Positions 3,088 through 48,990 are shown, counted from the first letter of the stretch. The stretch is 64,000 nucleotides of DNA from Massalongia carnosa (GCA_965645245.1 OZ287072.1:2604001-2668000), one strand, 5' to 3'. Notes: generated from the letters alone by a model not told the origin. Numbers and translations are program-made.

Positions 3088-3172
3088 ACGTCCCAGAACT
3101 TCGCGCAGAAAAACCCCTCGTCGTTGAAAGCAGCGCTAGTCCGGATACGACTTCGCCAATCATCGTTGAAAA

Positions 3173-3473
3173 TGTTAAATGGTGAGGCTACCATCGGTTA
3201 GATGGTTAGGCTACCATCAATATAGGCATCCATCGTGAGTCCCACGGGTGCCTGCCAGGCATCTATAAGAGGTGCCTAACAGGCAGCTATGGAGGTGCCT
3301 AACAGGCAGCTATGGGAGGCCTACAGCATTACTGTTATGTGACTGCTATAAAAGCAGGTAGATAGCCCACATAGATAATTACCTTCAATGACAATCATGC
3401 TACTATACCTCCAAAGTGAATTTTACTATTCATAGAAAACACTAGAGTAGCCCCGAAGCGGTTAGATTTAACA
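3173..3473. mobile_element. 301-bp solo-LTR-like insertion (TG...CA) without visible TSD
   Basis: 8-bp terminal inverted repeat TGTTAAAT...ATTTAACA, internal repeated AGGTGCCTAACAGGCAGCTAT and a TATAAAA box. Removing it rejoins the pol frame (..IVEK|ARPGK..LSICMIG). Confidence 0.7.
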
Positions 3474-4879
3474 GGCCCGGCCTGGTAAATCGCGCGTAAA
3501 TTCGAAAGCAGTCGCGTCCGCCGCTTCTTCGCCTATTTTACCTTCAACCTTACCCGTTCCGTCCCTGCTCGTTCCGTCCCCGCTCGTTCCGTCCCCGCTC
3601 GTTTCGTCGCCGACCAATAAGAGTCTACCATTGAGCATATGTATGATAGGGGCAGCTCCCTTTACGCGTCTAGCGAAGAAGAAGGATTGTGAACTCTTCA
3701 CCGTGAACATGCGAGAAATTGAGCATGGCTTGAATCCTAAGCCGGAAATTAATCCCGCTACAGTGTTACCATCGGAATATCACGAATTTCTTAATGTATT
3801 TTCCAAGAAAGAAGCCGATAAACTTCCCGAGCGACGTAGCTATGATCATAAAATCCCGTTGATGGAGGGAAAGGAACCGACGTATAGCCCGTTATATGGC
3901 ATGAGTCGAGATGAGCTGTTAGTTCTACAGAAGTATCTCACGGAAAACCTGAAGAAATGTTTTCTTCGATCCAGTTCTTCCCTGCTGCGTCCCCGGTGTT
4001 GTTCGTTAGAAAACCAGGCGGAGGCCCACGTATTTGTGTTGATTATAGAGCATTAAATGCGATAACGATCAGGAACAGATACCCCTACCGTTGATCAGAG
4101 AAACCTTGGACCGCTTGAGTAAGGCAGTTGTCTTTACTAAGCTAGATATTATCGCGGCTTTCAACCGTCTCCGTGTAGCACATGGAGTGGAAAACTGCAT
4201 TTCGAACACGCTATGGATTATTTGAGTATATCGTCATGCCATTTGGGCTCTAGGGCTCCATCTTCGTTTCAGGAGTACATCAATGATGTGCTTCGTGAAT
4301 ATTTAGACATCTTCTGCACCGCGTACATCGATGATATATTGATTTATAGCAATTCTATGAAGGAACACAGGAATCATGTGAAAAAAGTTCTAAAAAGACC
4401 ATAAAGAAAGCCGGACTACAACTTGACATCATGAGGATATCACATAATAACCACTGCGTGCACCACCACCGCGCACCTGTCTCCGCACAATGGACTCTCC
4501 AACCGATTCTTCCATAGATGATATGGCTGCACGCGCTACGGTCAAAACTACTGGCGATATCAGGTACGTGATGGCTCGTGATGGCTCCCCAACCAAGACG
4601 CAACTGGCCGCGCTAACGCCTCGCCTTCGGTGGACAGTATCATAACTATCCCAGACGTCGAGGCTGTCTCCGACTCCGAGAAAATCGCAATTCTCAAGAA
4701 AGCAGAGTACGGGCTTGGACAGATTCAGGCAATTCCAAGGAGTCAGGCTAACGCTGCAATATATTCAGACAGCGGCTGATATCAGGTCCTCTCGACGCTT
4801 ATGCTCTACGGTCGAGACTACAGTTCGTTCAGTACCTCATATATCTCCTCCTAATACTGATGCTGTGATAACCTAGGTC

Positions 4880-6017
4880 CATAACACCGCCTTCGGACGA
4901 GGAGGAAGATAATGAAGAGTCTCGCTTGCTCGAAGCCCAGGCGCGTAAAGACCTAGAAAGCGATGACTGTTCTGCCAGCTACTCACCCCACCTCGACATC
5001 CCCGTGCGAAACTCGCCCGAGGAACATCGAACAATAATAGGGTACTGGCAATCATTCTCGTCGACAGGTGATGTGGTACTTTGCGCCGAGAGATCAGACT
5101 GGCGGAATTTCCGCGCGTCCCAGGTGCGAGTCCGGGGCCGCTATCGAAACGAACTATTCAGTACATATGTGGACGAGGTTCGCGAGCGTCGGCGAAGGCA
5201 TGGACTGGGTGGCGACGTTCATCTACTGTTGTACTCGCAGCAGCAGAGTCAGCAAGAGAACTGGGTAGAGTTTCAGAACTATCATCTCAAACGTCATGAG
5301 CGGTTGGAGAAGAAGCGAGATGAGCTGAAGAAAGAATTAGATGACGCTCAGAAGAAAGCTGGTGATACGGACATGATAGGTTCTGAACACACAGCACAGA
5401 ACGAAAAAGTCATTCAGCGACGCCTGGAGTATGTTGAACGAACCCTGCGATGGCACGAGATTATCTTGAGGTGGATTTAACAGCAGCGACTTGCGATGGA
5501 TCTACGGCCTCCGACACCCGTCGAAGAAGACAGTGATGATCAGAATGCCGTACTAAAAGCCGTACGGAGAGTCTCCACTCGTCACCGCCAGTCGAGGCGA
5601 CAAGACATTTCTGCGGTCCTCGGTAAGGTCAGGGTCTTAAAACCTACGCCGAAGAGTCGGAAAATGCGGATTCAGACGTTCAAGGCTTCAAAATCCAAGC
5701 CTATCATCGTGGACTCGAACATCACGACGTCGAGCAGCATTCAACAAGTGCCAAAGCGTCGAGAGACAAAGCCTCGACGTGCCCCAGAGACGTCACTTGG
5801 CCAACTTCGTCCACAGAGAGTGTCCAAGGCAAAACGATTCGCTGATGCCGACACGAAATCACGGCCAGAGACACAACGCCGCAGCGTCAGGCAGACTCCA
5901 GGCCAACTACGGCCTCAGCGCCGGCCGGCCACACAGCGACTGCATCCTGCACCTGGGCCTGTTGAGACCCGAAGTGGACAGATATCAAAGCCGCCAGTAA
6001 GGTGGACCCCCGAATAA
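4880..6017 (+). pseudogene. Hypothetical fungal protein, coiled-coil then basic/low-complexity tail, broken by an in-frame TAA at 5478-5480
   Basis: ORFs 4926-5480 and 5496-6017 share a frame and are separated by a single stop (WI*QQRLAMD). Function unknown; 5' end unresolved. Confidence 0.5.
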
Positions 6018-7431
6018 AAGACAGCATCTACCTCTAACGTCTACGACACTTACGAATGATGACTGGGTGAATGAATGACTCACGCAAAAGAGGCAAGGAG
6101 ACCGGGCCGGGCTACATCCATGGAATGATATCACTGGTGGAACGAAAAGTGGCGGTGGCAAAGACGATCAACCCGTCAATGTCTGCATATTATTGCATAT
6201 TTCGGGCTTGGCGTTTGGTACATCTCAAAAATGCATGAATAAAGCAATTCTTATCTATTGTTTGACTGTGTATCTCTATGCCTATCCATATACGAGCTGA
6301 CAGTGACGATAGCTACCATCAACAAACACTTAGTTACCGGACTCCCTGCTTCAGTCACTTCCGCTAGCATGCCGGCTGTTTGACCCGGGTAGGTGTTACA
6401 ATTAATGCGTGCGCCTCATGAACATGGAGCATAGATTTACCATCGCGTTGTGATTGACACACCGAGGTATATGGATAAGGACTTGCGGGGGGCGGGGAGG
6501 AGAGGTGGTGTGATGTGAGGGAAATTGGACACTTTGTGAAACGATGGCTACTTGAGTATCTGCGTAAGGGAGTACTCCCTATGAACCTCCAAAAACTGAG
6601 GGAAGCTGAAGGAGTACTCGCCGAGGGAGCACTCGCCCAGGGAGGTACTCCCCACAGGTTATCCAAAATTCGAGGAGTACTCCCTGTAGGTAGACCTACA
6701 AATAAGTGAGGGAAGTATCAGCCAGAGGCATCCTGCCTTGAGGAGCGAGATAGAGAAGACTCGCCTCGTGCGGATAAACAATGACTGCCGCTACTAGCTT
6801 CGAGGCGCCGGCAGTGCCAAATTTTCAACCCAGTATGTAGAAGGGTCTATAATTAAGATCCGTCTCTGGTACGCGATGTAGTTTGAACTAGTCACGGCAA
6901 GGAGGAAGCTTAGGGTAGGTGAGAGGTAGGTGGGAAAAGGGATGAGGGCCCGTTTAGACCCAATGATTCAGGTCTCATTTCATGAATTTACTTACTGAAT
7001 TGTTGCTGCCATTGGCTCGATACTTTTCTGTAATTCTGACAGCATCAGTAGAAGGCATGATTGAAAATAAGAGAGGTATCTAGGTAAAAATTGATAGATA
7101 TGTAAGCTTCTAAGATATAAGAGTAGGCTGGAATGAATGAAGATGAGAATATGTGGTCTAACAATCCCTCTCTGCGAATATAAGGACTTTGATGTGGATA
7201 TGATTTCTATGACAGTTCGTCCTTGTTAAATGAACAGTTGACGGCATAATGTTGAAATTACTACGGAGGTGACTGCAGGGCTGAGCTAGAACTAATGGGG
7301 CTAAGCGAGTATTCCAACACTTCAAAAGTCGCTTCGTTGAAGGTTGCACGATGATTCCACCGCGAGATCATAGCCTACAGAGAAAGCAGAGTAGACAATA
7401 TCCTCCAACGGCTATCTCACTCTTCGACAAC

Positions 7432-7494
7432 TCAATCTCAGAGCAAGCAGAATTCATCCGTCAATCTCAGAGCAAGCAGAATTCATCCGTCAAT
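7432..7494. repeat. 29-bp tandem duplication
   Basis: TCAATCTCAGAGCAAGCAGAATTCATCCG occurs twice in tandem. Confidence 0.85.
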
Positions 7495-8879
7495 CAGATA
7501 GATCAATTTCTGACATCGAAGGACATCCTTCGATGCTGTTAGTAGGTTTAGGGTATACAAAGTCTTCCGGATTGATGATCTTGTTTCAAACTGAGGACTT
7601 TATAGATTCTCAAGCGGATATGTGCGTCACTGCTGCTCTATCACTTGAGGCCAGTTTCACCCGAAATTCTGCTCCAATCTGCCTAAGACCGTATGGTTCC
7701 CCGGTTTTCATGTACGTCCTCAACGGAGACATCTGTGGCGTACATGATACTTTGATTCGCTGTGAAGGCAGCTTATGGGATTATGATCCCTATGGGCTCG
7801 GTCTTCTTTACGTCAGCCAATGATTTTAGTCATGAAACATCTACTGACTAGTATAAAGTATGCAGCTCACTATTGCTGGAGTGGTTCTGGACAAGAATGT
7901 ACGCTGACTATGTATTCTGCTCTGTTGAGATTAGGGGCGCAGGATGATGACTTTGTCTGGAGAACGAGATCGGAAGCATATAGAAAGAGGCTTTCTTCGC
8001 CGTATATGCAAAGTCTATTTAAACCTCTCTCTCCTTCAGAAGCACTTCCATCTCTCGCCAGGTTGTTAGATTCTTTAATCTCGTTTCTGCTCCCTTTCAT
8101 CTTAACATGCGTGATTATACCGAGGTCATATATCAATGTAAACACCCTCGTTATTTAATTACAGCCTGGTGTGTTATTTATTAGCAAACATAGAAGAGAT
8201 GTCCTCTAAGAGTGATTGAGAAGTGAGTTAATGTGTGCCTATATTTTCGAGATCAAAACATTACTGACCTTTTTGTGGGCATAGAAAACAAGCCTGAAAT
8301 GAAATGCAGTGGTCCATCTCTCATCTACATCACTGTGAGGAATACTTATAAGATTTAATAATCAAAGACTGTCTGCCATCTAAAAGCCACATATTAAAAT
8401 TCTCTTCTCAAACGCATATCGAGTCTAAGTTAGCTAGTTCGCACGTCTAGAACGCACTTGCGCGAAAGTAGACCTCAAGGCGCTCAGTCCTCCACTTTCA
8501 AATCATAAATTGCAACTTCTCTCTTCATATTATTTGTTTCAGCTTCTATATTGCTGGATTTTTCCCGCCGCCCCACCCGTCCCCGGTCGCTCTTGCGCAC
8601 CACCTCACCACGTCGAGCGTTTCATGCCTCAAGCATCATCACTCAGCTGGTTCTCATGGTCCTTGTCCGACACCAGGTATTTATTTCATCGTGCCCCCCG
8701 ACCTCCAGAATCGGCTGTTCTGCTCAGCTTCCCCTCTGTTCCCGTCGTCTCTGACGACCCTTCTCTTCGTGTCCCTCTACCCTTCATCTTCGCCTTTCCA
8801 ACCCTCTTATTCTCCCACTTTCATTTTCGCCGTCCCTCCTTCACGTCGATCACCTATCGTCCACGCTCATCGACTCTAA

Positions 8880-10962
8880 TTTTCCCTGAACGAGTTTACA
8901 AGGACAGCAGCGAGGATCTGCAGAGCTGGATTAAGAACCTTTGGTATCGGTAAGGAGATGCTACTACTACTATCAATAAGTGGACTGGCGAAATCTGATC
9001 GAGGCTGACAGAAATTGCGAATTCACTGGGAAGAACCCCGTCATGACTCTCAAGGAGATCTCTATCAACATCCTCTACGTCTTCTTCGACTGGCTACTCT
9101 CCATTCGAAAAGATCGGCTGAGTGTGGCTAGTACCCTGCAAACATACTGGAATGTTTTTTACCTAGTGCGAAAGAAAGAGACTGGCTGTCTAGAGATCGA
9201 CTCGCTTATCAAAAGCCAGATGCACGGGGTACGAGAGCCCCATTCTACGCCTCTATTGATTAACCAGTACTAGGTGAGACAACGGCTCGCTCTAAAGCAC
9301 GGGTTAAGGACTGAGAAGAAGAAGAAGAAGCTCATCATGCGGGCCGAGGACGAGTTCGTCGAGATCGTCTTTGATCACGAGCGGCACCGTGTACAACTAG
9401 CCTTGATCATGCAGCTAGCCGGAATCACAGATAACCGTCCTGCTGCCCTCTTGGGTGTGTGCTACAAAGATGTTAAGATCACCTTGCTTCCGGATCTCAA
9501 AGGAGGGGAGCTTCCTCGACGGTTGATTGAAATCGCATTCAAGAATACGAAGGGCTATCTAGACGATAAAGAAACGTCCGTGTTGTCCTTTTGTGCTTTC
9601 TTCGTCGGGATGGACAGTTTCGCTGAACGACTGACAAGTATCATAGAAACGAGTTCAGGATTCCTGACGAGCCTGACGAACTATGCCTGCTGCTTTTTCC
9701 TCATCTGAACCTACTCACTTTGATCTTTATCGATCAGGCTTTCGCCGCTCCCGAATTGACTTCTGCCGAACAGTTATTCCGTCTCCGGATCCCCCCGGGA
9801 CAGAAACAGCTGCCGTTTCCCCTTAAGGAAACGATGCTACACGCTCTCCTCTTCCGCCGCTCCGAATTCACCGTGAACGGGGTTCGAATTTCGGATGACA
9901 AAGCTCTGCCTGACAGTACTCTTCGCTCACGGATGATAACCCTTGGAAGCGTCAATGGCATGAAGCTTCGAGCTTTTCGCTGACCCTTGCACAGGCTTCA
10001 TCAGCGAATCGCAACGGAATCAGATTTTGCAATATCATAACTCCACCGTGTTCTTAAAAAGCTATCTCTCGAGGTATATCACAACTGATACTGGGGCCGC
10101 CTCTTGTGATATGAAGCCGCAAACTGCGTTGATGCGACTCGCCAGTGGAAAGAGTCGTACGATTGATCGACGACGGCCTCGGAATCTCAATGACGCCCAA
10201 AAAGCCTAGGTCGATCGTCACCCAGAGGTGAGACTCCTTCGCCGGAGGCAAAAGAAAATGTTCTAGTTCATCAAAGACAATCATGGACCCATCGCGAGCA
10301 TGAAGGGGACATCAATGTAGAATAAGTACCAAAAGGCGTATCCAGCTCATCGCAACATAAAACGGCGGCAGAGGAGGCTCTTTTAGAAGAGGTCAAACCG
10401 AGGTAAAAGAGGGAGCAGCCGGTGATCGACATTCAACGAAAGCTGAAAGGACTGCCGTCGGTAGAACTAGAGACGGCGAAGGCAGAGGATTACGTCTTCA
10501 AGGGGCGTATTCGGGTCATCGACACCCTCCTCACCTTCGCGACGTCATCCCCAGAGGAAGAGTGCAAACGGCGTGTGGAAGCGATCAATGCTTTGACAGC
10601 CCTTTGTCGCTTGCAGGAAGGCAAGCGTCCACGTCGTTCAAAACTTTCCGCGTCGGTCATCAAGGAACGGCATCTGACACCACCATCTGTCCTCGATCCG
10701 GCCTCTCTTTCAGACTCCATCCCGATTGAACGCAAACCCACTCAATATCTTTTGCCTCGGCTGTGTAGCGCTACCCACTGAGACACGTCTGAAGTCTTTC
10801 CACGGCCGCTACGATCTGAAAAAGCACTTCCATTGTAAACACCTTCGTCATCACCAAGACGGTCATCCGATCGCATGCCCTCATCCAAGGTGTCAAGATG
10901 TTTTGACAAGCACAATGCACTTGCAGAACCATGCGGAGTTGGTTCACAAGACGCCCACTTGA
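8880..10962 (+). pseudogene. Degenerate DUF3435-type tyrosine recombinase (Starship captain-like) with C-terminal Cys/His fingers
   Basis: Fragments RHRVQLALIMQLAGITDNRPAALL (catalytic R box), LLFRRSEF..ISDDKALPDSTL, ..AFR, QYHNSTVFLKSYLSRYITTDT (H/Y region) and CLGC..DLKKHF..H..CPHPRC..HLQNHAELVH. Plausible introns near 8950-9011, 9229-9273 and 9576-9646; several stops and frameshifts. Confidence 0.8.
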
Positions 10963-11271
10963 CTGTCATTCGGCTTTTGCGTGCAGATTGGTTATATAAA
11001 TTCCTTTTGGGGTCACCACCTTACGAGCGGCCATAATAGGTTGCCTCCCCATAGAAAAGCTTCGGTTCGGCATCGAGCTTGCCTAATTCCATACCCTTCT
11101 GCTGTATTCGATGCGTCGAATGGTAAGTCTCATGACCATCTCGGGTTCTTATGGGTTCTTCGCTCCTTGTAGCCTATGACTGCTGCGTCACCATCAGCAT
11201 CAACTCTCGTATCGCTCTAGCTCCCAATTTCGGCTCCTCTACTCCCTCGCAAACATCCCATCTTCAAAATC

Positions 11272-11430
11272 ATGGCTACCGTACCATTTGCAACAGCAAC
11301 CAAATGGGATAGCCTAGGAGTATACGTAAAATGTCCCTTCTATCTAAAGACTCATCATCACGGACCAGATCATCAGCCATGGACAGGTCAGACTTGGGTT
11401 GCTCACTTCGGGGGCAATCGTGGGTATGCT
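11272..11430 (+). pseudogene. Short gene fragment with a decayed CPF(C)xxxHxHG-like metal-binding motif
   Basis: Reads MATVPFATATKWDSLGVYVKCPFYLKTHHHG..VAHFGG; resembles N-termini of some fungal ankyrin-repeat proteins (from memory, unverified). Confidence 0.3.
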
Positions 11431-11666
11431 GACCTTACCTAACAATCACTGTATTCTTACGAAGGATAGCTGCCTCCATCTAACATTCATCTAACATGGC
11501 TGCCTAAATCATACATGTACCGCGTTATAGATGGAGAGCATCTCGGCGCAACACACATGAAGTCAGAGATAATTGTTTTACCCTTGGGGCCACTATCTAG
11601 ACCATTATGTAAAATAGTAGCAATATTAAAAAACGATATTAAACTACTGGAAAACATGATATCTTC

Positions 11667-11769
11667 AGCCAGAAAAAATGCCCAAGGCTTTAAAATGACA
11701 GCGGCTTTTTAGTCCCTATCCCTTTTCAATCATTACTCCCTTTTAATCCCTACTCTCTTTCAATTCCTA
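11667..11769 (+). repeat. About 105-bp direct repeat, copy 1 (partner at 20323-20426)
   Basis: GCCCAAGGCTTT(A/G)AAATGACAG..GCTTTTTAGTCC..TTTTCAATCA.TACTCCCTTT..TCCCTACTCTC aligns colinearly with scattered substitutions. Confidence 0.85.
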
Positions 11770-11914
11770 TATAATCCGATTTGGCACAGCGAGACAAGAT
11801 GCCAAGAAATGTGAAACTTCCCCCGTACGTCTTGCGCCCTTGCGCCCCTTACCTTCAAGTTCCCTCTCAACGGAACGATAGAATTCCAATTCCACCATTG
11901 CCAGCAAGATCCAA

Positions 11915-14900
11915 CTAGCTTTCAGACGGTATGGATTTGATTTCATTTTGACGTTTGAATATGTCATCAGGCCTTGTCCTGCCTAGAATTGTCATACCTG
12001 GCACAGGTAAGCCGCTTGAGCCCCGCAGATACATCTCTTCGGCCTCGTTCATCTTGCCTTGATCTTTATACAAATTTCCTAGATTGTTGACCGTGTGGAG
12101 CGTTGATGTGTGATCAGGACCCCAGGCCTTTTCCTTTCCTGTCAATGCCCGCAGATACATCTCTTCGGCCTCGTTCATCTTGCCTTGATCTTTATACAGA
12201 CTTCCTAGATTGTTGACTGTGTCAAGCGTTGATGTGTGATCAGGACCCCAGGCCTTTTCCTTTCCTGTCAATGCCCGCAGATACATCTCTTCGGCCTCGT
12301 TCATCTTGCCTTGATCTGCATACAAAAGCCCTAGATTGTTGACTGTGTTGAGCGTTGATGTGTGATCAGGACCCCAGGCCTTTTCCTTTCCTGTCAATGC
12401 CCGCAGATACATCTCTTCGGCCTCGTTCATCTTGCCTTGATCTGCATACAGACTTCCTAGATTGTTGACTGTGTCAAGCGTTGATGTGTGATCAGGACCC
12501 CAGGCCTTTTCCTTTCCTGTCAATGCCCGCAGATACATCTCTTCGGCCTCGTTCATCTTGCCTTGATCTGCATACAAAAGCCCTAGATTGTTGACTGTGT
12601 TGAGCGTTGATGTGTGATCAGGACCCCAGGCCTTTTCGTATCCTGTCAATGCCCGCAGATACATCTCTTCGGCCTCGTTCATCTTGCCTTGATCTTTATA
12701 CAGACTTCCTAGATTGTTGACTGTGTCAAGCGTTGATGTGTGATCAGGACCCCAGGCCTTTTCGTATCCTGCCAATGCCCGCAGATACATCTCTTCGGCC
12801 TCGTTCATCTTGCCTTGATCTTTATACAAAAGCCCTAGATTGTTGACTGTGTGGAGCGTTGATGTGTGATCAGGACCCCAGGCCTTTTCGTATCCTGTCA
12901 ATGCCCGCAGATACATCTCTTCGGCCTCGTTCATCTTGCCTTGATTTTTATACAAATTTCCTAGATTGCCGACCGCGGCGAGCGTTGATGTGTGATCAGG
13001 ACCCCAGGCCTTTTCGTATCCTGTCAATGCCCGCAGATACATCTCTTCGGCCTCGTTCATCTTGCCTTGATCTGCATACAAAAGCCCTAGATTGTTGACT
13101 GTGTTGAGCGTTGATGTGTGATCAGGACCCCAGGCCTTTTCCTTTCCTGTCAATGCCCGCAGATACATCTCTTCGGCCTCGTTCATCTTGCCTTGATCTT
13201 TATACAGACTTCCTAGATTGTTGACTGTGTCAAGCGTTGATGTGTGATCAGGACCCCAGGCCTTTTCCTTTCCTGTCAATGCCCGCAGATACATCTCTTC
13301 GGCCTCGTTCATCTTGCCTTGATCTTTATACAAAAGCCCTAGATTGTTGACTGTGTCAAGCGTTGATGTGTGATCAGGACCCCAGGCCTTTTCCTTTCCT
13401 GTCAATGCCCGCAGATACATCTCTTCGGCCTCGTTCATCTTGCCTTGATCTGCATACAGACTTCCTAGATTGTTGACTGTGTTGAGCGTTGATGTGTGAT
13501 CAGGACCCCAGGCCTTTTCGTATCCTGTCAATGCCCGCAGATACATCTCTTCGGCCTCGTTCATCTTGCCTTGATCTGCATACAGACTTCCTAGATTGTT
13601 GACTGTGTCGAGCGTTGATGTGTGATCAGGACCCCAGGCCTTTTCCTTTCCTGTCAATGCCCGCTGATACATCTCTTCGGCCTCGTTCATCTTGCCTTGA
13701 TCTTTATACAAATTTCCTAGATTGTTGACTGTGTGGAGCGTTGATGTGTGATCAGGACCCCAGGCCTTTTCGTATCCTGTCAATGCCCGCAGATACATCT
13801 CTTCGGCCTCGTTCATCTTGCCTTGATCTTTATACAGACTTCCTAGATTGTTGACTGTGTCAAGCGTTGATGTGTGATCAGGACCCCAGGCCTTTTCGTA
13901 TCCTGTCAATGCCCGCAGATACATCTCTTCGGCCTCGTTCATCTTGCCTTGATCTTTATACAAAAGCCCTAGATTGTTGACTGTGTGGAGCGTTGATGTG
14001 TGATCAGGACCCCAGGCCTTTTCGTACCCTGTCAATGCCCGCAGATACATCTCTTCGGCCTCGTTCATCTTGCCTTGATTTTTATACAAATTTCCTAGAT
14101 TGCCGACCGCGGCGAGCGTTGATGTGTGATCAGGACCCCAGGCCTTTTCGTATCCTGTCAATGCCCGCAGATACATCTCTTCGGCCTCGTTCATCTTGCC
14201 TTGATCTGCATACAAAAGCCCTAGATTGTTGACTGTGTTGAGCGTTGATGTGTGATCAGGACCCCAGGCCTTTTCGTATCCTGTCAATGCCCGCAGATAC
14301 ATCTCTTCGGCCTCGTTCATCTTGCCTTGATCTTTATACAGACTTCCTAGATTGTTGACTGTGTCAAGCGTTGATGTGTGATCAGGACCCCAGGCCTTTT
14401 CGTATCCTGTCAATGCCCGCAGATACATCTCTTCGGCCTCGTTCATCTTGCCTTGATCTTTATACAAAAGCCCTAGATTGTTGACTGTGTTGAGCGTTGA
14501 TGTGTGATCAGGACCCCAGGCCTTTTCCTTTCCTGTCAATGCCCGCAGATACATCTCTTCGGCCTCGTTCATCTTGCCTTGATTTTTATACAAATTTCCT
14601 AGATTGCCGACCGCGGCGAGCGTTGATGTGTGATCAGGACCCCAGGCCTTTTCGTATCCTGTCAATGCCCGCAGATACATCTCTTCGGCCTCGTTCATCT
14701 TGCCTTGATCTGCATACAGACTTCCTAGATTGTTGACTGTGTTGAGCGTTGATGTGTGATCAGGACCCCAGGCCTTTTCGTATCCTGTCAATGCCCGCAG
14801 ATACATCTCTTCGGCCTCGTTCATCTTGCCTTGATCTGCATACAGACTTCCTAGATTGTTGACTGTGTTGAGCGTTGATGTGTGATCAGGACCCCAGGCC

Positions 14901-17900
14901 TTTTCGTATCCTGTCAATGCCCGCAGATACATCTCTTCGGCCTCGTTCATCTTGCCTTGATCTGCATACAGACTTCCTAGATTGTTGACTGTGTGGAGCG
15001 TTGATGTGTGATCAGGACCCCAGGCCTTTTCCTTTCCTGTCAATGCCCGCAGATACATCTCTTCGGCCTCGTTCATCTTGCCTTGATCTTTATACAGACT
15101 TCCTAGATTGTTGACTGTGTCAAGCGTTGATGTGTGATCAGGACCCCAGGCCTTTTCGTATCCTGCCAATGCCCGCAGATACATCTCTTCGGCCTCGTTC
15201 ATCTTGCCTTGATCTTTATACAAAAGCCCTAGATTGTTGACTGTGTGGAGCGTTGATGTGTGATCAGGACCCCAGGCCTTTTCGTATCCTGTCAATGCCC
15301 GCAGATACATCTCTTCGGCCTCGTTCATCTTGCCTTGATCTGCATACAGACTTCCTAGATTGTTGACTGTGTTGAGCGTTGATGTGTGATCAGGACCCCA
15401 GGCCTTTTCGTATCCTGTCAATGCCCGCAGATACATCTCTTCGGCCTCGTTCATCTTGCCTTGATCTTTATACAAATTTCCTAGATTGTTGACTGTGTGG
15501 AGCGTTGATGTGTGATCAGGACCCCAGGCCTTTTCCTTTCCTGTCAATGCCCGCAGATACATCTCTTCGGCCTCGTTCATCTTGCCTTGATCTTTATACA
15601 GACTTCCTAGATTGTTGACTGTGTCAAGCGTTGATGTGTGATCAGGACCCCAGGCCTTTTCGTATCCTGTCAATGCCCGCAGATACATCTCTTCGGCCTC
15701 GTTCATCTTGCCTTGATCTTTATACAGACTTCCTAGATTGTTGACTGTGTCAAGCGTTGATGTGTGATCAGGACCCCAGGCCTTTTCCTTTCCTGTCAAT
15801 GCCCGCAGATACATCTCTTCGGCCTCGTTCATCTTGCCTTGATCTTTATACAGACTTCCTAGATTGTTGACTGTGTCAAGCGTTGATGTGTGATCAGGAC
15901 CCCAGGCCTTTTCGTATCCTGCCAATGCCCGCAGATACATCTCTTCGGCCTCGTTCATCTTGCCTTGATCTTTATACAAAAGCCCTAGATTGTTGACTGT
16001 GTGGAGCGTTGATGTGTGATCAGGACCCCAGGCCTTTTCGTATCCTGTCAATGCCCGCAGATACATCTCTTCGGCCTCGTTCATCTTGCCTTGATCTGCA
16101 TACAGACTTCCTAGATTGTTGACTGTGTTGAGCGTTGATGTGTGATCAGGACCCCAGGCCTTTTCGTATCCTGTCAATGCCCGCAGATACATCTCTTCGG
16201 CCTCGTTCATCTTGCCTTGATCTTTATACAAATTTCCTAGATTGTTGACTGTGTGGAGCGTTGATGTGTGATCAGGACCCCAGGCCTTTTCCTTTCCTGT
16301 CAATGCCCGCAGATACATCTCTTCGGCCTCGTTCATCTTGCCTTGATCTTTATACAGACTTCCTAGATTGTTGACTGTGTCAAGCGTTGATGTGTGATCA
16401 GGACCCCAGGCCTTTTCGTATCCTGTCAATGCCCGCAGATACATCTCTTCGGCCTCGTTCATCTTGCCTTGATCTTTATACAGACTTCCTAGATTGTTGA
16501 CTGTGTCAAGCGTTGATGTGTGATCAGGACCCCAGGCCTTTTCCTTTCCTGTCAATGCCCGCAGATACATCTCTTCGGCCTCGTTCATCTTGCCTTGATC
16601 TGCATACAAAAGCCCTAGATTGTTGACTGTGTTGAGCGTTGATGTGTGATCAGGACCCCAGGCCTTTTCCTTTCCTGTCAATGCCCGCAGATACATCTCT
16701 TCGGCCTCGTTCATCTTGCCTTGATTTTTATACAAATTTCCTAGATTGCCGACCGCGGCGAGCGTTGATGTGTGATCAGGACCCCAGGCCTTTTCGTATC
16801 CTGTCAATGCCCGCAGATACATCTCTTCGGCCTCGTTCATCTTGCCTTGATCTGCATACAAAAGCCCTAGATTGTTGACTGTGTTGAGCGTTGATGTGTG
16901 ATCAGGACCCCAGGCCTTTTCCTTTCCTGTCAATGCCCGCAGATACATCTCTTCGGCCTCTTTCAGCTTGCCTTGTTCGTTTGAAAAATAGCCAATAGCA
17001 TGATACGAAGAATATAATACCTGTTCCCCTCTCATATTTCTTTCGAGGTTTTGAGGTTTTTTTCCAATCCAGAAGTGAACATAACTACAATGACCAGCCA
17101 GTCGTTTTCGATGCAGCCAGTTTGCTGAACTGCCAGTGGATTGACATGCGGAACCGATTACAGAAACTGCTAAAGAAGCTATCTCGTCGTTAGAGGTTAG
17201 ATTCATGTGAAAACACCAGTCATGTATAATTGGATGAATCGCATAAGATGAGATCTCATATCGTGTTTCTATCAAGGAGTAATCCAGCAGTATTTGAATC
17301 TTCTGTGTAAAATCAAATTCCGTCTTCATGCTACATAAAAACCAGATAGGTAATGTCTCTTTTGGGATAATGCTCTCGTCATCGTCAAGTACAGGTGCGA
17401 ATAAAGAATACCATAAATCTGAATGATCGAGATATGCAAACAGATTAAGCAATTTTGCAGCGCTCGCGTCATTGCGTTGCACATATTCATAGGAAATGGT
17501 GTACGTAGATAAAATGCTACGAGGATAATCTTTTAATCGGGTCGTTTTGTTGTTGTGAAGCTTCTCCCAAGTCTCTTCATAGTATCGAATATAGTCGTTC
17601 ACACTTGTAGTCGTTCCGTGGATATAGGAGCCTGCATGAGCAAGTGCTAGTGGGAGACCACCCACTTTCTCGACAATCCTATCAAGGCCTATAAAATGCT
17701 TAGTAAATTGGATTAAGACTGTGGCTTGAATTTCATTACCTTCAACTGATCGTCCTATCCTGCATCGTAATACTTCTGCTCCTTGTAGATCGCTCATCCT
17801 TCCAAGTTGCCGGTCCTGCCCGTGTTGTCGAAGCTGTCGTAATCGGCTTGTGATTAAAATAGAGCCATGATCGGCTTCCGGGAAAAAATCTTCCATATCA

Positions 17901-19463
17901 TATGATTGAGGATCATCTACCTCAGGGGAATTATCACGATCGACATTATCGAAAATGAGAAGCCATTGATTGTTTTCATGTTGACTGAACCAAATAAGAA
18001 TATTACGAATGATTTCATCTAGCTCTTCAGGGGATGTTTTAGAGAATTTTCTACATGAATCCGGAATCTGATCTGGGGGTAATTGCCGAGCAATCTGTGC
18101 AAGACTTTGACGTACACTTTCCTTACTATCGCCGTTTAGCCAAAAAATTGAACTGAAAATCTTCTGTGATCTTTGAGCGAACTCGATTGCTAGCTGAGTC
18201 TTGCCGGAGCCGCCCAGTCCGTGCAAAACGAACACCTTCCGGCGAGTCTCACGAGTTGGCTTGGGAAAAAGGGTATTCTTAAGGTCATTCATTTCCTGAT
18301 CACGAGCTATAAATTTTGGTACACGGGGTAAGCCTTTCAAACTAAACGGCACTTTATATGAACCACTGTCTATTCAAGGATTTAGTAACTCAAGAATTAT
18401 CAAGCAAACATTGACGCACATTCTCGTGTTGAAAGATTATTTCCACAAAGCTTCATTTGTTTCATCACGCTTTCCAAAGCCACATAGCGGGTTGTGGCGG
18501 CCATGATCTTGTTCTTCTGTGCTGCATCTTCGAGTCCAATACTCTCAAGCCCATGAGAAACATTGAAACGAAAGTAGCGATTTCCATCGTCGAGATCGGA
18601 ATGCGCTCGATGAAAAGACTCCGCTGTTTTTTCTGTCTCTGTTGCAATGTCTTTCAACGTTTTTGCAATCTCGAAGAGGCTTGAGCCATAAGTATCCAAG
18701 GATGGAACGCCGGTACCGATAGATATCAGGCATTTGATGTTTCCCTCAAGCGCTTCATCTGACCACACACTTTTGGCCTCGTTCCAAAGATGTGCGACAG
18801 GATTGTTAGCCCCCACAGCCCCATCGACAAACTCTTCTTCAAACTGACCAATTTTAACTGGATCAAAGAAGGATGATGCGGCAGATGTGGCTCGAGCTGC
18901 CTCCCAAATTCGTGTCTTATGGTACATATCTGATGATCCTCGAGAAGGATAGGATGTGAAAAGGACTGTGTCGGCAGTCTCTTTGCTCAGAGCGCATACA
19001 AATCTAGCTTTCATTAGTATCACTAGAATTATACGTGTAAATGCAACTTCCGAAGCACTAACACCTTGCATTGCTGATTCTCTGATCCTTTGAGGAGAGC
19101 ATTTTCCCCTGCCTTCTCCTTCCGCTTTACGATTTCTCGAATCGACCGTTCCAGCTCTTCTGTGTCGAATCTCCCCTGCACGTGTCCGTTTATTGTGACA
19201 CGATGCCGCTTTTTTTTAAACACTTGATCGAACAATGCGACATAGGCATCAATACATTCATCGATATTCATCTCAAGACGACCTAGCATGATAGCAATCA
19301 ATCCACCGGTACTTGTCCCTCCGATCAAGTCGAAATACTCGCATGGCTTCGGCGGCGCATTCGGATTGATGATCTCCATCAGTCGCTTGAGGATTGCGAG
19401 TGACGATAGCCCTCGCACTCCACCGCCATCAAGAGATAATAGGCATAAATCTTTATCTGGCAT
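11915..19463 (-). CDS. Fungal NLR: patatin-like phospholipase + NB-ARC + TPR array (PLP-1-like architecture), about 2462 aa, 4 exons
   Basis: Exons 19463-19063, 19003-18420, 18369-17740, 17688-11915 (7389 nt, in frame). Introns GTTAGT..CTAG (59 nt), GTGCGT..TAG (50 nt), GTAATG..TAG (51 nt), each with an ACTAA branch site. Patatin motifs DGGGVRG, GTSTG, DGA; P-loop GLGGSGKT, Walker B LLIFDNVD, GGLPLAL; 42-aa TPR repeats. Confidence 0.95.
12023..16936 (-). repeat. 39 tandem 126-bp (42-aa) TPR-coding units with very high internal identity
   Basis: Span 4914 bp = 39 x 126; consensus ALTG[K/Y]EKAWGPDHTSTL[N/D/H]TVNNLG[L/S/N]LY[A/K]DQGKMNEAEEMYLR. Confidence 0.97.
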
Positions 19464-19624
19464 GATAGAAGGTCCTAGTTTTCTTCGAATTATACAACTA
19501 GCCTGGTAGGAATGTGCAGAGGCTGGCTTTGGAAATGAGTGGTATAGAAAGCATCAGTCAAGCTGTTATTGTTGCGCGGCTGAATGATATCCATATAAGG
19601 CTGAAAACGTCAAGCCCAGGCTTT

Positions 19625-19737
19625 ATCCAGGGTGCGTACAAGCTACTCGTAGTAATGCAACTGCCGACAGCAAATTAAACTCATTTCGGTTTAAGTCGTA
19701 TGACGTGTTTATTGCTACTAATAATTACCCTAATCGT
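19625..19737 (+). repeat. Fragment of the TIR/subterminal region of the Mutator-like family at 21573
   Basis: ATCCAGGGTGCGTACAAGCTA..ATTAAACTC.TTTCGGTTTAA.TCGTAT.ACGTGTTTATTGCTACTAATAATTACCCTA matches 21650-21755. Confidence 0.8.
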
Positions 19738-20174
19738 GCTAAACCACTTTCGGAATGGAAGAGCATCCCTTATCGACGATGATGGAAAGAAGTATGAGGT
19801 GCGTCCACGACTTCAGCGAGATACATCTTTTCGTCTCCTTTCGCACGCGCTGTTGTCTCGCGGTATCGATGTTTGGCCAGGCTGGTGATGTAAGCGGATT
19901 CAGTCTTGTCGGCGTAGATTCGGATTGCGACACAAGTCCCCCGGAATACTTCATAGATGGGATTTGACGCCTTAGCTGCTTCAAGAGCACTGTTGACTTT
20001 TCTGATCAAGACATCCGTAGGCTGGTTGGCGAAGAAAAGAACCGACTTGGAAAAAGCGAGTGAAAAGAGGCGTGGAGTACAATTAGATTAATCTAGATTT
20101 TTGTTTTAATTTTGGTGTGTATTTTAAGAATTTCATTCTACGAGTTTGGTCCCACGAGTTATGTCTCCTTACGA

Positions 20175-20600
20175 CTTTTATTCCCCCAAGGCTTTTGTCC
20201 CCTCAGGGACTTTATTTCCCCAGGGCTTTTATTCTCCCAGGGCTTTCATTCCCTCGGGGAACGAAAAGAGTAGGGAAACGAAAGCCCTGGGAGAATAAAA
20301 GCTCTGGGGAAATAAAATCCCTAGCCAAGAAAAACGCCCAAGGCTTTGAAATGACAGGGGCTTTTTAGTCCATATTCCTTTTCAATCACTACTCCCTTTC
20401 AGTCCCTACTCTCGTCTAATTCCTACCCACTTCCAGTCCCTACTCCCTTTCAGTCACTACTCTCTTCCAGTTCCTATGCTTTTTGAATTCCTACTCCCTT
20501 CCAGTCTCTACTCTCTTTCAGTCTTCACTCTCTTTCAACGTCTATAATCTTTCAGTCCCTATGCTTTTTAAAGCCCTTCTAGTCCTCACCCCCTTTAGCG
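20175..20600. repeat. Fold-back array of about 19-bp units, then direct-repeat copy 2 (20323-20426) and a degenerate about 18-bp tandem array
   Basis: CTTTTATTCCCCCAAGGGC-like units (20175-20255) are mirrored by GCCCTGGGAGAATAAAAG units (20260-20320); TTTCAGTCCCTACTC(T/C)C-like units recur to about 20600. Confidence 0.75.
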
Positions 20601-21088
20601 ATAATATTTAACTTTAACTTTTATGAAAAGCTTCATTCGCGAGACGCTTGTCTCCGTTATATTGAGTGTATAATTTTTCGTAAAACACGGATGAGTCTAT
20701 GAAATGTTTCATTTACGACGCTCAGGATTTTAAAGAAGGGGGGGGGTTTCGGAAAAGGATCTCATGAAGGAGGGTTGGAAAAGAACTTTTGGTCACCATT
20801 AAATGATGAAGTCTATTAATAACAAGTGCTGATGCTAGATGAAGAAGAAAGATGAATCAAATCCTTGAATACTCCGCTGGATTCGAGCTAAACCGTATTT
20901 GGTCAAAAAGATAAGAATTCTCTGTTGACAGCACATACTGAAATGCAAAGACACTAACTAACCCCGTAAGAGCCTTGCACTATTAGAAGAGAGCTTTACC
21001 ATAGCATTGCCTCTAGTGATAATCTTTCGTGCTTTCTATAGCTTTGTCTTACTTTAAATGATAGTAGTACAAGTTCTCGCACGAAGCT

Positions 21089-21493
21089 GTGATGAGTAAG
21101 AACAGCGTTAATACAAAACCATCACAGTCTACCGCTAGATCACGACCGCAGACCGAACTCGAAACTGGCTTCCGAGAGTGGATGTTCCTTATATCAAGAC
21201 AGAATACGCGGTTTCAAGTTGTGGAGATAGAGAAGTTCTTCAAGGTGGCCTGGGAATTCATCAGCAAGGAGCATACAGAAACTGGGCAACAGATTATCAT
21301 GAAACTAGCGACGGAGGAAGAGCTAACTATGATCAAGGCTCTTACAGATGAAAAGGTCGATGGCGTTGAGCTAGAAATGAGGCTGCGTATCTTTAAGAAT
21401 AGGACACTTCTCTTTTTTCGAATCATTTCTCCCCCGGACATCCTGTCATTCTTAATTTTGGAGACACCGCTCGATCGCGTGTTCAGTAATTAG
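21089..21493 (+). pseudogene. Fragment resembling the N-terminus of fungal ZNFX1-like/AAA helicase proteins
   Basis: Pattern FF..AW.......QQII.KLATEE.L..IK.L ... F..IS.PDIL..LILE recalled from that family; truncated and unverified. Confidence 0.35.
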
Positions 21494-23635
21494 CCTCAAC
21501 GTGGAAATGAGGTTTGGATATTCCATTAGCAGAATAAAATAGAAAGGATTCAGAATACATGCATTGGAAGGACGAGATGCTTATGGACAGTCCCCCCCGA
21601 CCGTCCCCCCTGTGTAAATCTTTGCTAGTAAACAGCCATTTTACTACTCATCCAGGGTGCTTACAAGCTAGTAATGCAGCTGTCAACAGCACATTAAACT
21701 CTTTTCGGTTTAAATCGTATCACGTGTTTATTGCTACTAATAATTACCCTACTCGGTCTGATAAAGCATACCCTCACCCTCACCTTTGCCCTCCCCTAAA
21801 TCTTCCCTTCCACTTATGCTATACCTCATATTATATATTTTATTACTCCTCATCGCGATGGAGTCCGATCCCACTTCTTTGGATGCACGGAAGCAACATG
21901 CCATTGCCCTTCTACCCCCATCTCGCCTCCTCCCTCCGCAAGAGAATGAGTTAGTTTCGTCTTGAAAGAAGCCGAAGACTCGTCTTCAAGACTATGCCTT
22001 CATCCAAGGCTTCGCGTTGATCACAGAACTCACTATTGCGGCTAATAATGGGTACAAGGTACAATAGGTTTAGGAGAAAACTTAGTCATGAAGAGAATCG
22101 AAAACGCGCCTATCATCTCCGACGACGACGAGGTTCAGTATATAAACACTCAGCCCATTCTCGGTCGTTCTATGAGTCCTATGCTTCCTTCGGATGACGA
22201 TAATGATGTTATGCTTTCATCAGAAGCCTCGTCGGATTCGCTCGAAGATATTGACGATGTGCTTGCCAAGCATAACTAGTCAAAAAGCACTATTTCAGGC
22301 AGCGCCGCCTTCATCTCTTTATAGTCTTAGTCAAAACGTGCGCGTCAGTCAAATTCTTCCTACTTCCTCCGCAACAACGCGAAGGTCTCGAGATGTGATG
22401 AAGAAATCAAAGGCTCAGTTGGAGTTGGAATCTCAGGAAAGAGTCGAGAAATCAGTCAAACAGATTAGGACTCAAGCGAGAAAGGAAACGACGATGAGAA
22501 AGGTGGCTAAAACCATGAAGCCTAGAAAAGATGATGTATCGCAATTGATTGACGAGTTTTTGGGATTGAAGTCATCGCAATAGGTAGATTTGTAGATGTT
22601 GAATACATTTAGTTAGTAACAGTAACGTTATTAATACGTAGTCACGTACTATAACTGCTAGCTTGTACAAATCGGGTCTAGGAAGTCAGCAAACACTTCG
22701 CTTAATTTCCCCTCATCTAAATTCCCCCCTTACTTCACCCCCCCCTTTCTACATCAATTTTCATCTGATCAACGAAATGCCTTCTAAACCCAAGACGGCC
22801 AGACGTGAACACTCGTCTGAAACCATTGCTATCGTTGTAGCCCTTCCTGAAGTCCACTTATCCTATGCTGAAATAGCCCGTCAAGTTCGGCTGGCCCGTT
22901 CCACCGTAGTCACCATAGTTCATAGAGCTAAGAGACAAGCCGACGCCTCTTCCGTTCCCAAAAAACGTACTGGTCGGCCAACCAAGCTAAATGTCCGTGC
23001 CAGACGGGCATTGATTCGCCATGTTGAGAAAAATCCACACGATAATTTGCTGGCCCTGACTACCCCTTCCAAATCGGGTCAAAAGCTCTCTCGCGTCACC
23101 GTACGAAAATATCTGAAGCTCGGTGGCTATTTCCGTTTCAGGGCTAGAAAAAAGCCGTTTCTATCAGCACGTCACAAAGCAATCAGGCTAAAATGGGGCA
23201 AGGAGCATAAGCATTGGACGGTAGAAGATTGGGGCCGAGTTATATGGACAGATGAAGCTACGTTTGAAACTGGTTTAGACACTCGCTCGTGCTACGTCAC
23301 GAGACGAAAAGGCACGGCCATGGAGTCTAGATATCTGAAGCCTACATTCAAAAGCGGACGAAGCACTGTGGGCATCTGGGCTAGCATACGATTGGGTGAA
23401 AAAGGCCCTATGCTCGTTTTGAATAAGGGGAGACGAATGAATTCAGATATCTACATTGACGAGGTGCTACGGCCTTTAGGGCTCTCGTTTTATGAAGCAT
23501 GCTTGACTAGGCGAGGTTTGACGATCTGGATGGATGACGGAGCCAGCTATCATACTTCGAAAAAGGTGATTGATTGGGGAAGACGAAACGGGCTTTTACG
23601 CATGGCTTGGCCACCTCAGTCACCCGATTTGAATC

Positions 23636-24083
23636 TGTTGCGAATTTCCTAAGTTGCCGCATTTTCTTGAATTCCCGCATAACTATTTTTAGCTAAGCTC
23701 AATTGGGTAATCGCAAAATATTTAACGAGTTCGATTTCTAATGTGGCGGGATGAGATTTCAAATCACTCTTTTACGGCATGATAAACCGCGAGAAGATGA
23801 ATAAGCTATTATAGCTATTTTGACATACATGGCGACAATGGCCTCATCAGATTATCAATCCTTTCGGCTTCGTACATTCAAAAGTTGCGAAGTTCGGTCA
23901 GCAAAGCCGAATAGGGGTAATATTCTTTAGGTATAATAAGGCGTTGATTTCTCATGTATTTTATCTATTCAGTCGTTATCAGGTAGCTATTCGGTATAAT
24001 AAATATTCAGCTATTCAGCACTTATTCTTGTACCTTTATCGTCCCAGACAACCTGCCTCCCATTATCCAGGCGCGTTTCAACA
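23636..24083. mobile_element. 448-bp solo-LTR-like insert in the DLNPIE motif of Tc1 copy A
   Basis: TGTTG...CAACA ends, 5-bp TSD GAATC (23631-35, 24084-88); same insert in copy B. Confidence 0.85.
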
Positions 24084-24276
24084 GAATCCCATTGAGAATC
24101 TCTGGCGTATTATCAAAATACGGGTCAGTGCCCGTCGTCACCAAATCCATACAATTGAGGCCATGGAGCAGGCTATTCGGGAGGAATGGGAGCTGTTGAC
24201 TGAGGAGGACTTCAGACGGTGCATTGAGAGCATGCCTGAGCGTATTTGCTTTCTTATTAAGGCTAAAGGGGGTTCT

Positions 24277-48749: not shown

Positions 48750-48990
48750 CAGTCGGCCTCCTTCCACCGTCCTTGATTCGTGTATGCCAATGCCAGGTTG
48801 ACTATACTGATTAGTGTGTCTAGATGCTCCTCTTCCAGTATCCCCGAGCCCGTCTTCATCACTTGTATCTCTAGCTCCTCGGCCTCCTTTCACCGTCCCT
48901 GATTTCAGTAGGTCAATGCCAGTTTGGCCATGCTGCTCAGCGCGGAAGGATGCTCGGGCCTCAATATCCTCTTTCTTGTCTCTGCCGCTT
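48750..48990 (-). pseudogene. Relic of NLR-type TPR repeats
   Basis: Translates as ETRKRILRPEHPSALSSMAKLALTY*NQGR*KEAEELEIQVMK..EEHLDTLISIVNLALAYTNQGRWKEA (not in ORF track). Confidence 0.75.

Follow-up and report, generated by a model that had tools for sequence, protein, structure and literature searches.

What does a 4.9-kb array of 39 nearly identical tetratricopeptide repeat (TPR) units do, and do the few residues in which these units differ spell out a recognition code? These questions arise from a locus of Massalongia carnosa (GCA_965645245.1 OZ287072.1:2604001-2668000), a stretch of 64,000 nt that we call the window and within which all positions are counted. Tandem Repeats Finder reported one array there, at 12022-16975, with a period of 126, 39.3 copies, 94% matches and no indels. 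An initial annotation of this DNA had described the array as the repeat domain of a fungal NOD-like receptor (NLR; NOD stands for nucleotide-binding oligomerization domain) with high internal conservation, and had proposed that it forms a reshufflable code, like that of transcription activator-like effectors (TALEs), by intra-array recombination. Here, we analyzed the gene that contains the array, the distribution of differences among its units, its predicted fold and its relatives. Taken together, the results make it very probable that the array serves as ligand sensor in a fungal NLR that has a patatin-like phospholipase at its N-terminus and an NB-ARC domain at its center.

The array is part of an intact three-domain gene

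The array lies on the minus strand inside a single open frame of 2145 codons (11915..18352). The whole gene comprises three exons (11915..19463, minus strand) and encodes an NLR of 2479 aa, made up of a patatin-like phospholipase domain, an NB-ARC domain and 39 TPR units of 42 residues. Exon 1 (19063..19463, with the ATG at 19463) encodes the first half of the patatin domain (Pfam PF01734, E 1.2e-15), including the DGGGVRG motif and the catalytic serine motif GTSTG, and exon 2 (18420..19003) encodes the second half (PF01734, E 1.9e-8), including the catalytic aspartate motif DGA. Between them, intron 1 (19004..19062; 59 nt, GTTAGT...CTAATGAAAGCTAG) was identified by reading the sequence, and its donor was the sole choice that restored both the frame and a continuous alignment to relatives. 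Intron 2 (18370..18419; 50 nt, GTGCGT...TACTAAATCCTTGAATAG), identified in the same way, precedes exon 3 (11915..18369), which was delimited by a splice-site test. Exon 3 encodes the NB-ARC domain (17489..18301; Pfam PF00931, E 2.9e-9, residues 18-288 of P0001), followed by the TPRs. All of these features are on the minus strand, and the spliced frame of 2479 codons contains no internal stop. Patatin (PF01734), NB-ARC (PF00931) and TPR_10/TPR_12 follow one another in this one frame, which is the tripartite order of fungal NLRs, members of the signal transduction ATPases with numerous domains (STAND). The patatin motifs DGGGVRG, GTSTG and DGA are found at residues 12, 49 and 194, so that both the catalytic Ser and the catalytic Asp motifs are present, and the NB-ARC motifs GLGGSGKT, LLIFDNVD, GLPL and, further on, IIHD are found intact at residues 379, 465, 566 and 709. 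These four correspond to the Walker A, Walker B, GLPL and MHD-like motifs of NB-ARC domains.

Over their whole length, the first 420 residues of the protein align with the patatin-NLR proteins P0011, P0007 and P0015 (55-60% identity, 3-6 gaps), and it is to such NLRs of other genera that the patatin domain is closest. The NB-ARC part is closest to P0002 and P0003, two proteins from a metagenome-assembled genome (MAG) of Vezdaea aestivalis, with 59% and 55% identity, respectively. Comparison of these two proteins with window positions 16925-18367 also revealed that their N-terminus differs from that of the gene, being an alpha/beta-hydrolase-like region and not patatin. NB-ARC relatives with different N-termini constitute a case of effector-domain swapping between related NOD-TPR modules. 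P0002 carries 11-12 units that are nearly identical to the unit of the array and that vary at positions 1, 14, 21 and 24-25. Judging from the V. aestivalis MAG as the nearest source of proteins, the host appears to belong to a lichen-associated ascomycete lineage.

Differences among units are confined to a few positions

The sequence AWGPDHTSTL is invariant, and when it was used as an anchor, 39 units were obtained with a spacing of 42 residues throughout. The register used here, K/Y-EKAWGPDHTSTL...ALTG, begins 4 codons later than that of the initial annotation. In this register the units, each of 126 bp (42 aa) with hypervariable codons 1, 14, 21 and 24, occupy 12011..16924 on the minus strand, from unit 1 (16924..16799) to unit 39 (12136..12011). 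Their mean pairwise protein identity over 39 x 42 aa is 0.92, and this 92% identity, combined with the Pfam domains described above, bears out the view of the array as an internally highly conserved repeat domain of a fungal NLR. Translation of the region just before unit 1 (16925..17059, minus strand) gave a divergent N-terminal capping repeat, with a degenerate helix A and a helix B that is already the EAEEMYLRALTG of the array. At its other end the array stops within helix B of unit 39, at codon 39, without a degenerate C-terminal capping repeat, and continues into a short non-repeat C-terminal tail (11915..12010, minus strand, from the translation).

Position 1 is K in 16 units and Y in 23; position 14 is N in 12, D in 14, H in 9 and A in 4; position 21 is L in 12, S in 19 and N in 8; and position 24 is A in 14 and K in 25. 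These per-column counts agree with the 39 near-invariant TPR units, variable at K/Y, N/D/H, L/S/N and A/K, that had been described initially. The linked variant A14-A15-G17-N21-K24-N25 (AAVG..N..KN) was found in the same four units as reported, namely units 2, 19, 23 and 32, and the opening order KNLA, Y(A)NK, KNLA, KDSK, YDSK, KHNK, YNSA, YHLK was reproduced exactly. The change of ALT to ALA, assigned to units 9, 15 and 34, corresponds to T41A in our units 8, 14 and 33; the numbers shift by one because the earlier register starts four codons earlier. L37Q, which occurs once, in unit 26, is absent from the earlier list, and the remaining amino-acid variation is at the broken end of unit 39. 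The multi-base codon changes that had been noted were also seen, since the codon alleles differ by several bases (AAG/TAC, CTT/AGT/AAT, GCA/AAA).

The statement that the variants occur in many combinations needs one qualification. Of 48 four-letter words that could be formed, the units use 13, encoded by 17 different nucleotide versions of the unit, and the residues at positions 14, 21 and 24 are far from independent of one another (a permutation test gave p 0.0002 both for 14-21 and for 14-24). Only position 1 varies independently of the other three.

Replacement changes are local and the units bear marks of exchange

We estimated pN and pS among the 38 complete units from Nei-Gojobori counts. 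The four hypervariable codons gave a pN of 0.38 and a pS of 0, whereas the other 38 codons gave a pN of 0.011 and a pS of 0.065 (pN/pS 0.17); for the whole unit, pN/pS was 0.81. The excess of replacement changes is strictly local to the four codons, and in this respect the initial interpretation is supported. Each of the variable sites has several alleles at intermediate frequency, and 35 codons are invariant even at silent sites, except for sites that touch variable codons.

The few silent differences had been described as sitting mostly beside the variable codons, and this was the case for all five silent polymorphic sites, each of which is within 1-3 nt of a hypervariable codon (random placement among the 40 sites that allow a silent change gives P about 5e-5). 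Each is completely linked to the adjoining variable codon, as in GGG-CTT-TTG, GGA-AGT-CTG and GGA-AAT-TTG. The elements that vary are thus short patches of several nucleotides, and the rest of the unit is invariant. Although no more than 5 invariant nt separate the patch at codons 20-22 from that at codons 24-25, the two occur in all four combinations, and so does K/Y with N, D and H. These alleles are at least two bases apart, which favors exchange between units over recurrent mutation. On a larger scale, the longest exact self-match at an offset of six units revealed a tandem duplication of a six-unit block (14997..16601, minus strand), in which units 4-9 equal units 10-15; the segments 16601..15753 and 15845..14997 are identical over 849 nt. 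This match is either a recent block duplication or an assembly error. The combination patterns and the 849-nt duplicate indicate exchange within the array.

Three other accounts of the variation were considered. RIP-like (repeat-induced point) mutation was rejected as its source, given that the allele pairs at segregating sites comprise 13 transitions and 10 transversions and that several alleles are multi-base. Adenine-targeted mutagenesis of the kind carried out by diversity-generating retroelements was dropped, as the changes involve more than one base. As for distance-dependent linkage, position 1 is free of position 14 with 35 invariant nt between them, and 14 is tightly linked to 24 with 24 nt between them; no firm conclusion on linkage by distance as the whole explanation can be drawn, because other arrays show associations at all position pairs, as unit duplication alone would give.

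The hypervariable positions align with peptide contacts of KLC1

An AlphaFold2 model of the cap and units 1-8 (mean predicted local distance difference test score 86.9) has a regular helix-turn-helix pattern, in which helix A spans unit positions 10-25 and helix B spans positions 29-42 together with positions 1-5 of the following unit; the capping repeat is helical at residues 3-50 of the model. The top Foldseek matches were the TPR superhelices of O-GlcNAc transferase (OGT), the kinesin light chains KLC1/2 and consensus TPR proteins. Consistent with this, a phmmer search of the PDB returned the TPR domains of KLC1/KLC2 as the best solved sequence relatives (E 1e-43, 36-40% identity), and the Podospora anserina 42-residue TPR structures 4y6c/4y6w matched the array at E 1e-15 to 1e-16.

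To place the variable positions, we used the gapless part of the KLC1 alignment and transferred the contact list for KLC1-JIP1/TorsinA (PMC6214655) to it, after checking the KLC1 numbering by hand at 11 residues (V305, K309, Y313, R327, K340, N343, N344, L347, L348, N351 and N386). Unit position 1 aligns with KLC1 R327, position 14 with K340, positions 17/18 with N259, N301/N302, N343/N344 and N386, position 21 with V305 and L347, position 24 with R266, and position 25 with K309 and N351. According to the excerpts of the structural report drawn on here, all of these KLC1 residues contact the cargo peptide on the concave surface, and the asparagine pairs bind the peptide backbone by hydrogen bonds (PMC6214655). 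The same excerpts describe a tyrosine pocket between TPR3 and TPR4 and pockets that are built from neighboring repeats, with Asn pairs from different repeats. Of the 42 positions in a unit, 9 correspond to mapped contacts, and these include every one of the four hypervariable positions (hypergeometric probability about 0.001), which flank the conserved Asn17-Asn18 ladder. The check that had been suggested for the array, that the variable residues should line the concave TPR groove, is positive by KLC1 homology, with four of four at contact positions; by this alignment, as opposed to coordinates, the variable residues would be on the concave face of the groove.

The same positions vary in other ascomycete arrays

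We next asked how the array compares with its relatives. A hidden Markov model was built from its units, and we retained arrays with at least 5 gapless full-length units and a mean pairwise identity of at least 0.80. A first sample of 121 proteins (120 listed relatives and the array's own protein) contained 62 with at least 5 gapless units, and 27 others besides the array passed the identity cut. Positions 21, 14, 1, 24 and 25 vary in 27, 26, 26, 25 and 25 of these 27 conserved arrays, respectively; the mean entropy at the five positions is 1.0-1.4 bits, and at every other position it is at most 0.5. A second, independent sample was obtained by searching 1.84 billion representatives with a profile of 14 units. 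The best 150 of its 64,784 matches at E <=0.001 were used and supplied 148 new proteins, of which 120 had at least 5 gapless units and 16 were highly conserved; in these 16 arrays, positions 21, 14, 1, 24 and 25 again rank first. Arrays with the same variable positions come from many ascomycete genera. The residues used are also few. Position 1 includes Y in 25 of the 27 arrays of the first sample and K in 22; position 14 includes D in 26 and N in 20; and position 21 includes L in 24, N in 23 and I in 17.

The array stands apart in its length. The longest other conserved array in the two samples has 15 units, so that 39 units are 2.6 times as many as in the longest conserved array among 268 other proteins, a comparison to be read in the light of the fact that short-read assemblies collapse such arrays. 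Among the other proteins compared, P0043 has the most unit matches, 18, in repeats of lower conservation. The array's protein scored 3940 bits in 40 domains with that profile and the next protein 1186 bits, the former matching its own profile by construction. A metagenome scan for NB-ARC relatives gave 604 pattern matches, none of which was confirmed.

The gene is found in public sequencing runs

Five public runs from three studies, one of them labelled as a lichen metagenome, contain over half of the words that were sampled from the gene's unique part. The runs consist of short-read contigs. Four of them were aligned to 16799-19500, that is, to one unit and the unique part, a region that no listed contig piece spans; runs X6-X22, which contain small shares of the sampled words, were left out of the comparison. 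The gene is covered at high identity in all four aligned runs, which represent the three studies and have many differences in common. Among the contigs of the unit, both the K/Y changes (16922, 16924) and the N/D change (16885) are present in all four runs, and the junction of unit codon 39 with the 3' flank (29 of 30 letters) was recovered in contigs of all four as a loose end. Summed over the unit, the depth reaches 15 to 80 times that of the unique part, a ratio that is not a copy number and to which paralogous arrays may add.

Two further differences from the window were seen in these runs. The contigs of X1, X3 and X4 match the gene as far as 19476 (13 nt upstream of its ATG, which is at 19463) and then diverge, and their divergent 5' loose ends of 91-242 letters have one consensus in all three runs. 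This divergence of the 5' flank represents an insertion, a rearrangement or a paralogous copy. In addition, a 6-nt in-frame deletion at 17376, between the NB-ARC domain and the TPRs, is present in one X1 contig and in the sole X4 contig covering the site, and is an in-frame length polymorphism among the samples.

The gene is surrounded by transposons

The surroundings of the gene are rich in transposons, with Copia- and Gypsy-type elements that have long open frames and several Tc1/mariner-type transposases. Near the gene is a DUF3435 (PF11917) gene on the plus strand (9274-10778), which is broken over at least four frames. It converges on the NLR gene, whose stop codon is about 1.1 kb from its end. 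Proteins with DUF3435 are the 'captain' tyrosine recombinases of elements of the Starship/Crypton type, the cargo of which often includes NLR and patatin genes. Between the two genes, the 3' flank of the NLR gene contains a 17-nt imperfect tandem repeat (11705-11769; about 3 copies, 72-75% matches).

Two regions, 22663-42640 and 53811-63306, are densely filled with transposons and have many long open frames. They include Copia-type polyproteins on the minus strand (24661-29862) and on the plus strand (31540-35889), a Gypsy-type element with gag, reverse transcriptase, RNase H and integrase on the minus strand (37767-42640), and Tc1/mariner-type transposases at 22663-23652, 53811-54896 and 62266-63306; Tc1/mariner-type fragments lie at 1900-2511 and 46655-47086. 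Because the transposon frames are intact, little or no RIP-type inactivation is suggested for this genome. Between transposon fragments, the plus strand of 44481-46636 contains two long overlapping open reading frames (ORFs) of 337 and 386 aa, for which no significant Pfam match was found and a single sub-threshold one was obtained at E 0.0064. Within the 64-kb window, blastn detected no other array, and tblastn gave only a weak TPR-like match at 48752-49003 (32% identity), the ORF of which has no Pfam match.

Discussion

The domain order, the intact motifs and the restricted variation place the gene in a known setting. Dyrka et al. 2014, in the excerpts of their work used here, found that about a fifth of fungal NLR TPR domains are more than 85% identical internally and that such motifs are mostly of 42 residues and preferentially associated with NB-ARC; they define the class of high internal conservation (HIC) by repeats more than 85% identical over at least 100 aa, and list patatin among the N-terminal effector classes (PMC4986451). 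The array has an identity of 0.92 over 39 x 42 aa, its TPRs are of 42 aa and an NB-ARC domain lies upstream; its variable positions, with a pN of 0.38 against a pS of 0.065 elsewhere, would also be concave by the KLC1 alignment. The same excerpts describe concerted evolution and diversifying selection on concave 42-residue TPR positions, report that P. anserina TPRs have three positions under positive selection, with all polymorphic ones concave in a KLC2-based model, and give a repeat number of 2 to more than 14 in a PCR survey of P. anserina arrays (PMC4986451). As far as the passages of Ament-Velasquez et al. 2026 used here go, TPR units are exchanged between paralogues, and internal conservation is perfectly correlated with length polymorphism (PMC13449251). 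Like the P. anserina NLRs Pa_2_10340, PaPnt1 and Pa_7_3550, the gene has NB-ARC followed by 42-aa TPRs with over 85% identity to one another, a small number of polymorphic positions on the putative concave face and marks of repeat exchange; the published repeat-number polymorphism and positive selection are theirs (PMC4986451, PMC13449251). By contrast with those of P. anserina, it has 39 units instead of 2 to more than 14, a patatin effector, and a host that probably belongs to a lichen-associated ascomycete lineage.

By its architecture, the gene can be likened to PLP-1 of Neurospora crassa, HET-Z PaPlp1 of P. anserina and vic2 of Cryphonectria parasitica, which have the same three domains. 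In the available excerpts, PLP-1/HET-Z are patatin-NB-ARC-TPR receptors that kill upon meeting an incompatible SEC-9, and PLP-1 binds SEC-9 and requires both patatin activity and the P-loop (PMC12881547). The gene contains both the patatin catalytic motifs and the P-loop, on which killing by PLP-1 depends. PLP-1/HET-Z guard the SNARE SEC-9 and have a linked, polymorphic sec-9 gene as genetic partner, whereas Pfam scans of ORFs in the flanks of the gene found no sec-9-like gene. NACHT/WD40 fungal receptors resemble the array in their near-identical repeats, with four hypervariable ligand-facing positions in each and with repeat gain, loss and shuffling, the repeats setting specificity; they differ from the gene in having a WD40 beta-propeller and not a TPR solenoid, NACHT and not NB-ARC, and a HET/TIR-like effector (excerpts of PMC13449251 and PMC4986451). 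KLC1/KLC2 (PDB 6FUZ, 6FV0 and 3NF1, among others) have the 42-residue TPR subtype and the conserved helix A Asn pair in common with the array, but consist of six divergent repeats and a non-TPR helix, bind short acidic motifs, and are without a NOD, internal conservation or hypervariability. The 42PR structures 4Y6C / 4Y6W are like the array in their very high internal identity, with a different unit sequence; 42PR is reportedly the five-repeat construct of Marold et al. 2015, derived from a natural fungal 42-residue TPR-like repeat. TAL effectors of Xanthomonas are long, recombination-prone arrays of near-identical repeats with few specificity residues, but have only this design principle in common with the array, their fold and kingdom being different, their repeats of 33-35 aa, their ligand DNA, and their one-repeat-one-base rule, through the repeat-variable diresidue, demonstrated. 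Membership of the array in the TAL effector type is out, as its units are 42-aa TPRs by Pfam, by PDB sequence search and by fold search, and no one-to-one rule can be derived from them.

On the reading of the array as a sensor, we infer the following mode of action. The 39 units would stack into one continuous alpha-solenoid. Its concave face, where peptides or proteins bind in this TPR subtype, would be lined in each unit by the conserved Asn17-Asn18 and by the four variable residues, that at position 1 coming from where helix B ends and those at positions 14, 21 and 24 from a single side of helix A. On the model of PLP-1/HET-Z, the binding of a ligand would free the NB-ARC switch for oligomerization, and the phospholipase, acting as cell-death executor, would kill the cell. 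The receptor might serve in the recognition of foreign conspecific strains or of other organisms. Unequal crossing-over and short-tract gene conversion between misaligned units would keep the units nearly identical and, at the same time, duplicate, delete and re-assort the variable patches, and selection would maintain several alleles at the four contact codons.

Several observations weigh against this view. Placement of the variable residues on the concave face rests on an alignment with KLC1 at 36-40% identity and not on coordinates. The pN/pS of the whole unit is below 1 (0.81), and the argument for selection is therefore site-specific; moreover, pN/pS was obtained from simple pairwise counts on recombining sequences, which can mislead. 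With 13 words in 39 units, the array has the lowest word diversity per unit, other arrays having mostly 0.6-1 word per unit, so recent block expansion fits better than strong diversification. No SEC-9-like SNARE was detected by Pfam scans of 38 flanking stop-to-stop ORFs (chosen from 71 of at least 70 aa in 1-11900 and 19500-24600) and of larger ORFs elsewhere in the window, a scan that a gene with many introns or outside the window would escape. Finally, there is no C-terminal capping repeat, and the gene is set among transposons and next to a broken DUF3435 gene. The missing cap and the transposon setting therefore raise the possibility of a recently expanded, functionally idle copy.

Such a copy, decaying or out of use in a transposon-rich or Starship-like region and expanded by replication slippage, would fit the flanks, with the DUF3435 remnant about 1.1 kb from the stop codon, the abrupt end of the array, and a 5' flank that differs in three of four runs from 13 nt upstream of the ATG. 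We consider it unlikely, since the 7.4-kb coding sequence has two clean introns, no stop or frameshift and all catalytic and nucleotide-binding motifs intact, and the gene was found at high identity in four runs from three studies. To a similar degree we doubt that the array is an assembly artefact, in which the number or order of units would be wrong through over-expansion or scrambled collapse of a shorter array. Units that are 94% identical and contain a perfect 849-nt duplicate are hard to assemble, and the sample data are short-read contigs without a listed piece that spans the aligned stretch. On the other hand, the 4.9-kb array keeps one frame with no indels, neither of its borders is unusual, the 3' one was recovered from four runs of three studies, the unit is covered 15 to 80 times as deeply as the unique part (a ratio that does not give a copy number), and the K/Y and N/D variants are present in all four runs. 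Neutral concerted evolution, under which the variable sites would be old differences not yet homogenized, with neither selection nor a role in recognition, could account for the whole-unit pN/pS of 0.81 and for the associations between positions, which duplication history alone yields and which are seen in other arrays too. It is nonetheless highly improbable in view of the same five positions being variable in 27 + 16 independent arrays from many genera, the coincidence of the variable positions with the ligand contacts of KLC1, and the presence of several intermediate-frequency alleles per site against 35 invariant codons.

A further alternative concerns how a sensor of this kind would read its ligand. 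In a modular, TALE-like code, each unit would read one or two residues of an extended peptide lying on the Asn ladder, with its four variable residues as the specificity word, and the order of the units would spell the target. The alignment of Asn17/Asn18 with the backbone-binding asparagine pairs of KLC1, that of the variable positions with side-chain contacts, and the small alphabets common to distant ascomycetes (Y/K at position 1, D/N at 14, L/N/I at 21) are in keeping with such a code. We regard it as improbable all the same. In KLC1, recognition is composite across repeats: with the pocket lying between TPR3 and TPR4 and the Asn pairs coming from different repeats, it does not assign one repeat to one residue. 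In the array, only 13 of 48 words occur, with the helix-A positions tightly associated; identical words recur in blocks; and 39 units far exceed any known linear-motif site. Of the reshufflable, TALE-like code that had been proposed, exchange within the array is thus supported by the 849-nt duplicate and the patches in four combinations, whereas the one-repeat-one-element reading is not supported, given the composite KLC1 pockets and the dependent words. The wider claim that the small alphabets at the four or five hypervariable positions (Y/K; D/N; L/N/I/S; K/S/A/R; D/N), common to arrays across Ascomycota, and a double-Asn ladder together constitute a general, readable specificity code for extended peptides also has a low probability in our estimate. 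If it were true, 42-residue TPR arrays would be the natural equivalent of modular binders of the designed armadillo-repeat or TALE type, and no other natural 'word' in the proteins compared here would come near that of the 39-module array in length, the order of its units spelling a long linear target.

In summary, the array is a very long new case of the described HIC class of fungal NLRs; the concept is already known, and it is mainly length that sets this case apart. It provides a clean and extreme example of the way in which fungal immune receptors combine high internal conservation with hypervariable contact sites. Its length, and the residue-by-residue match of its variable positions to peptide contacts of KLC that were defined by experiment, may be of interest for work on fungal NLRs or on the design of repeat proteins. 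So may the variation at the same positions, with small and largely the same residue alphabets, in 43 other arrays from many genera, which suggests that there are constraints on what these receptors can read.

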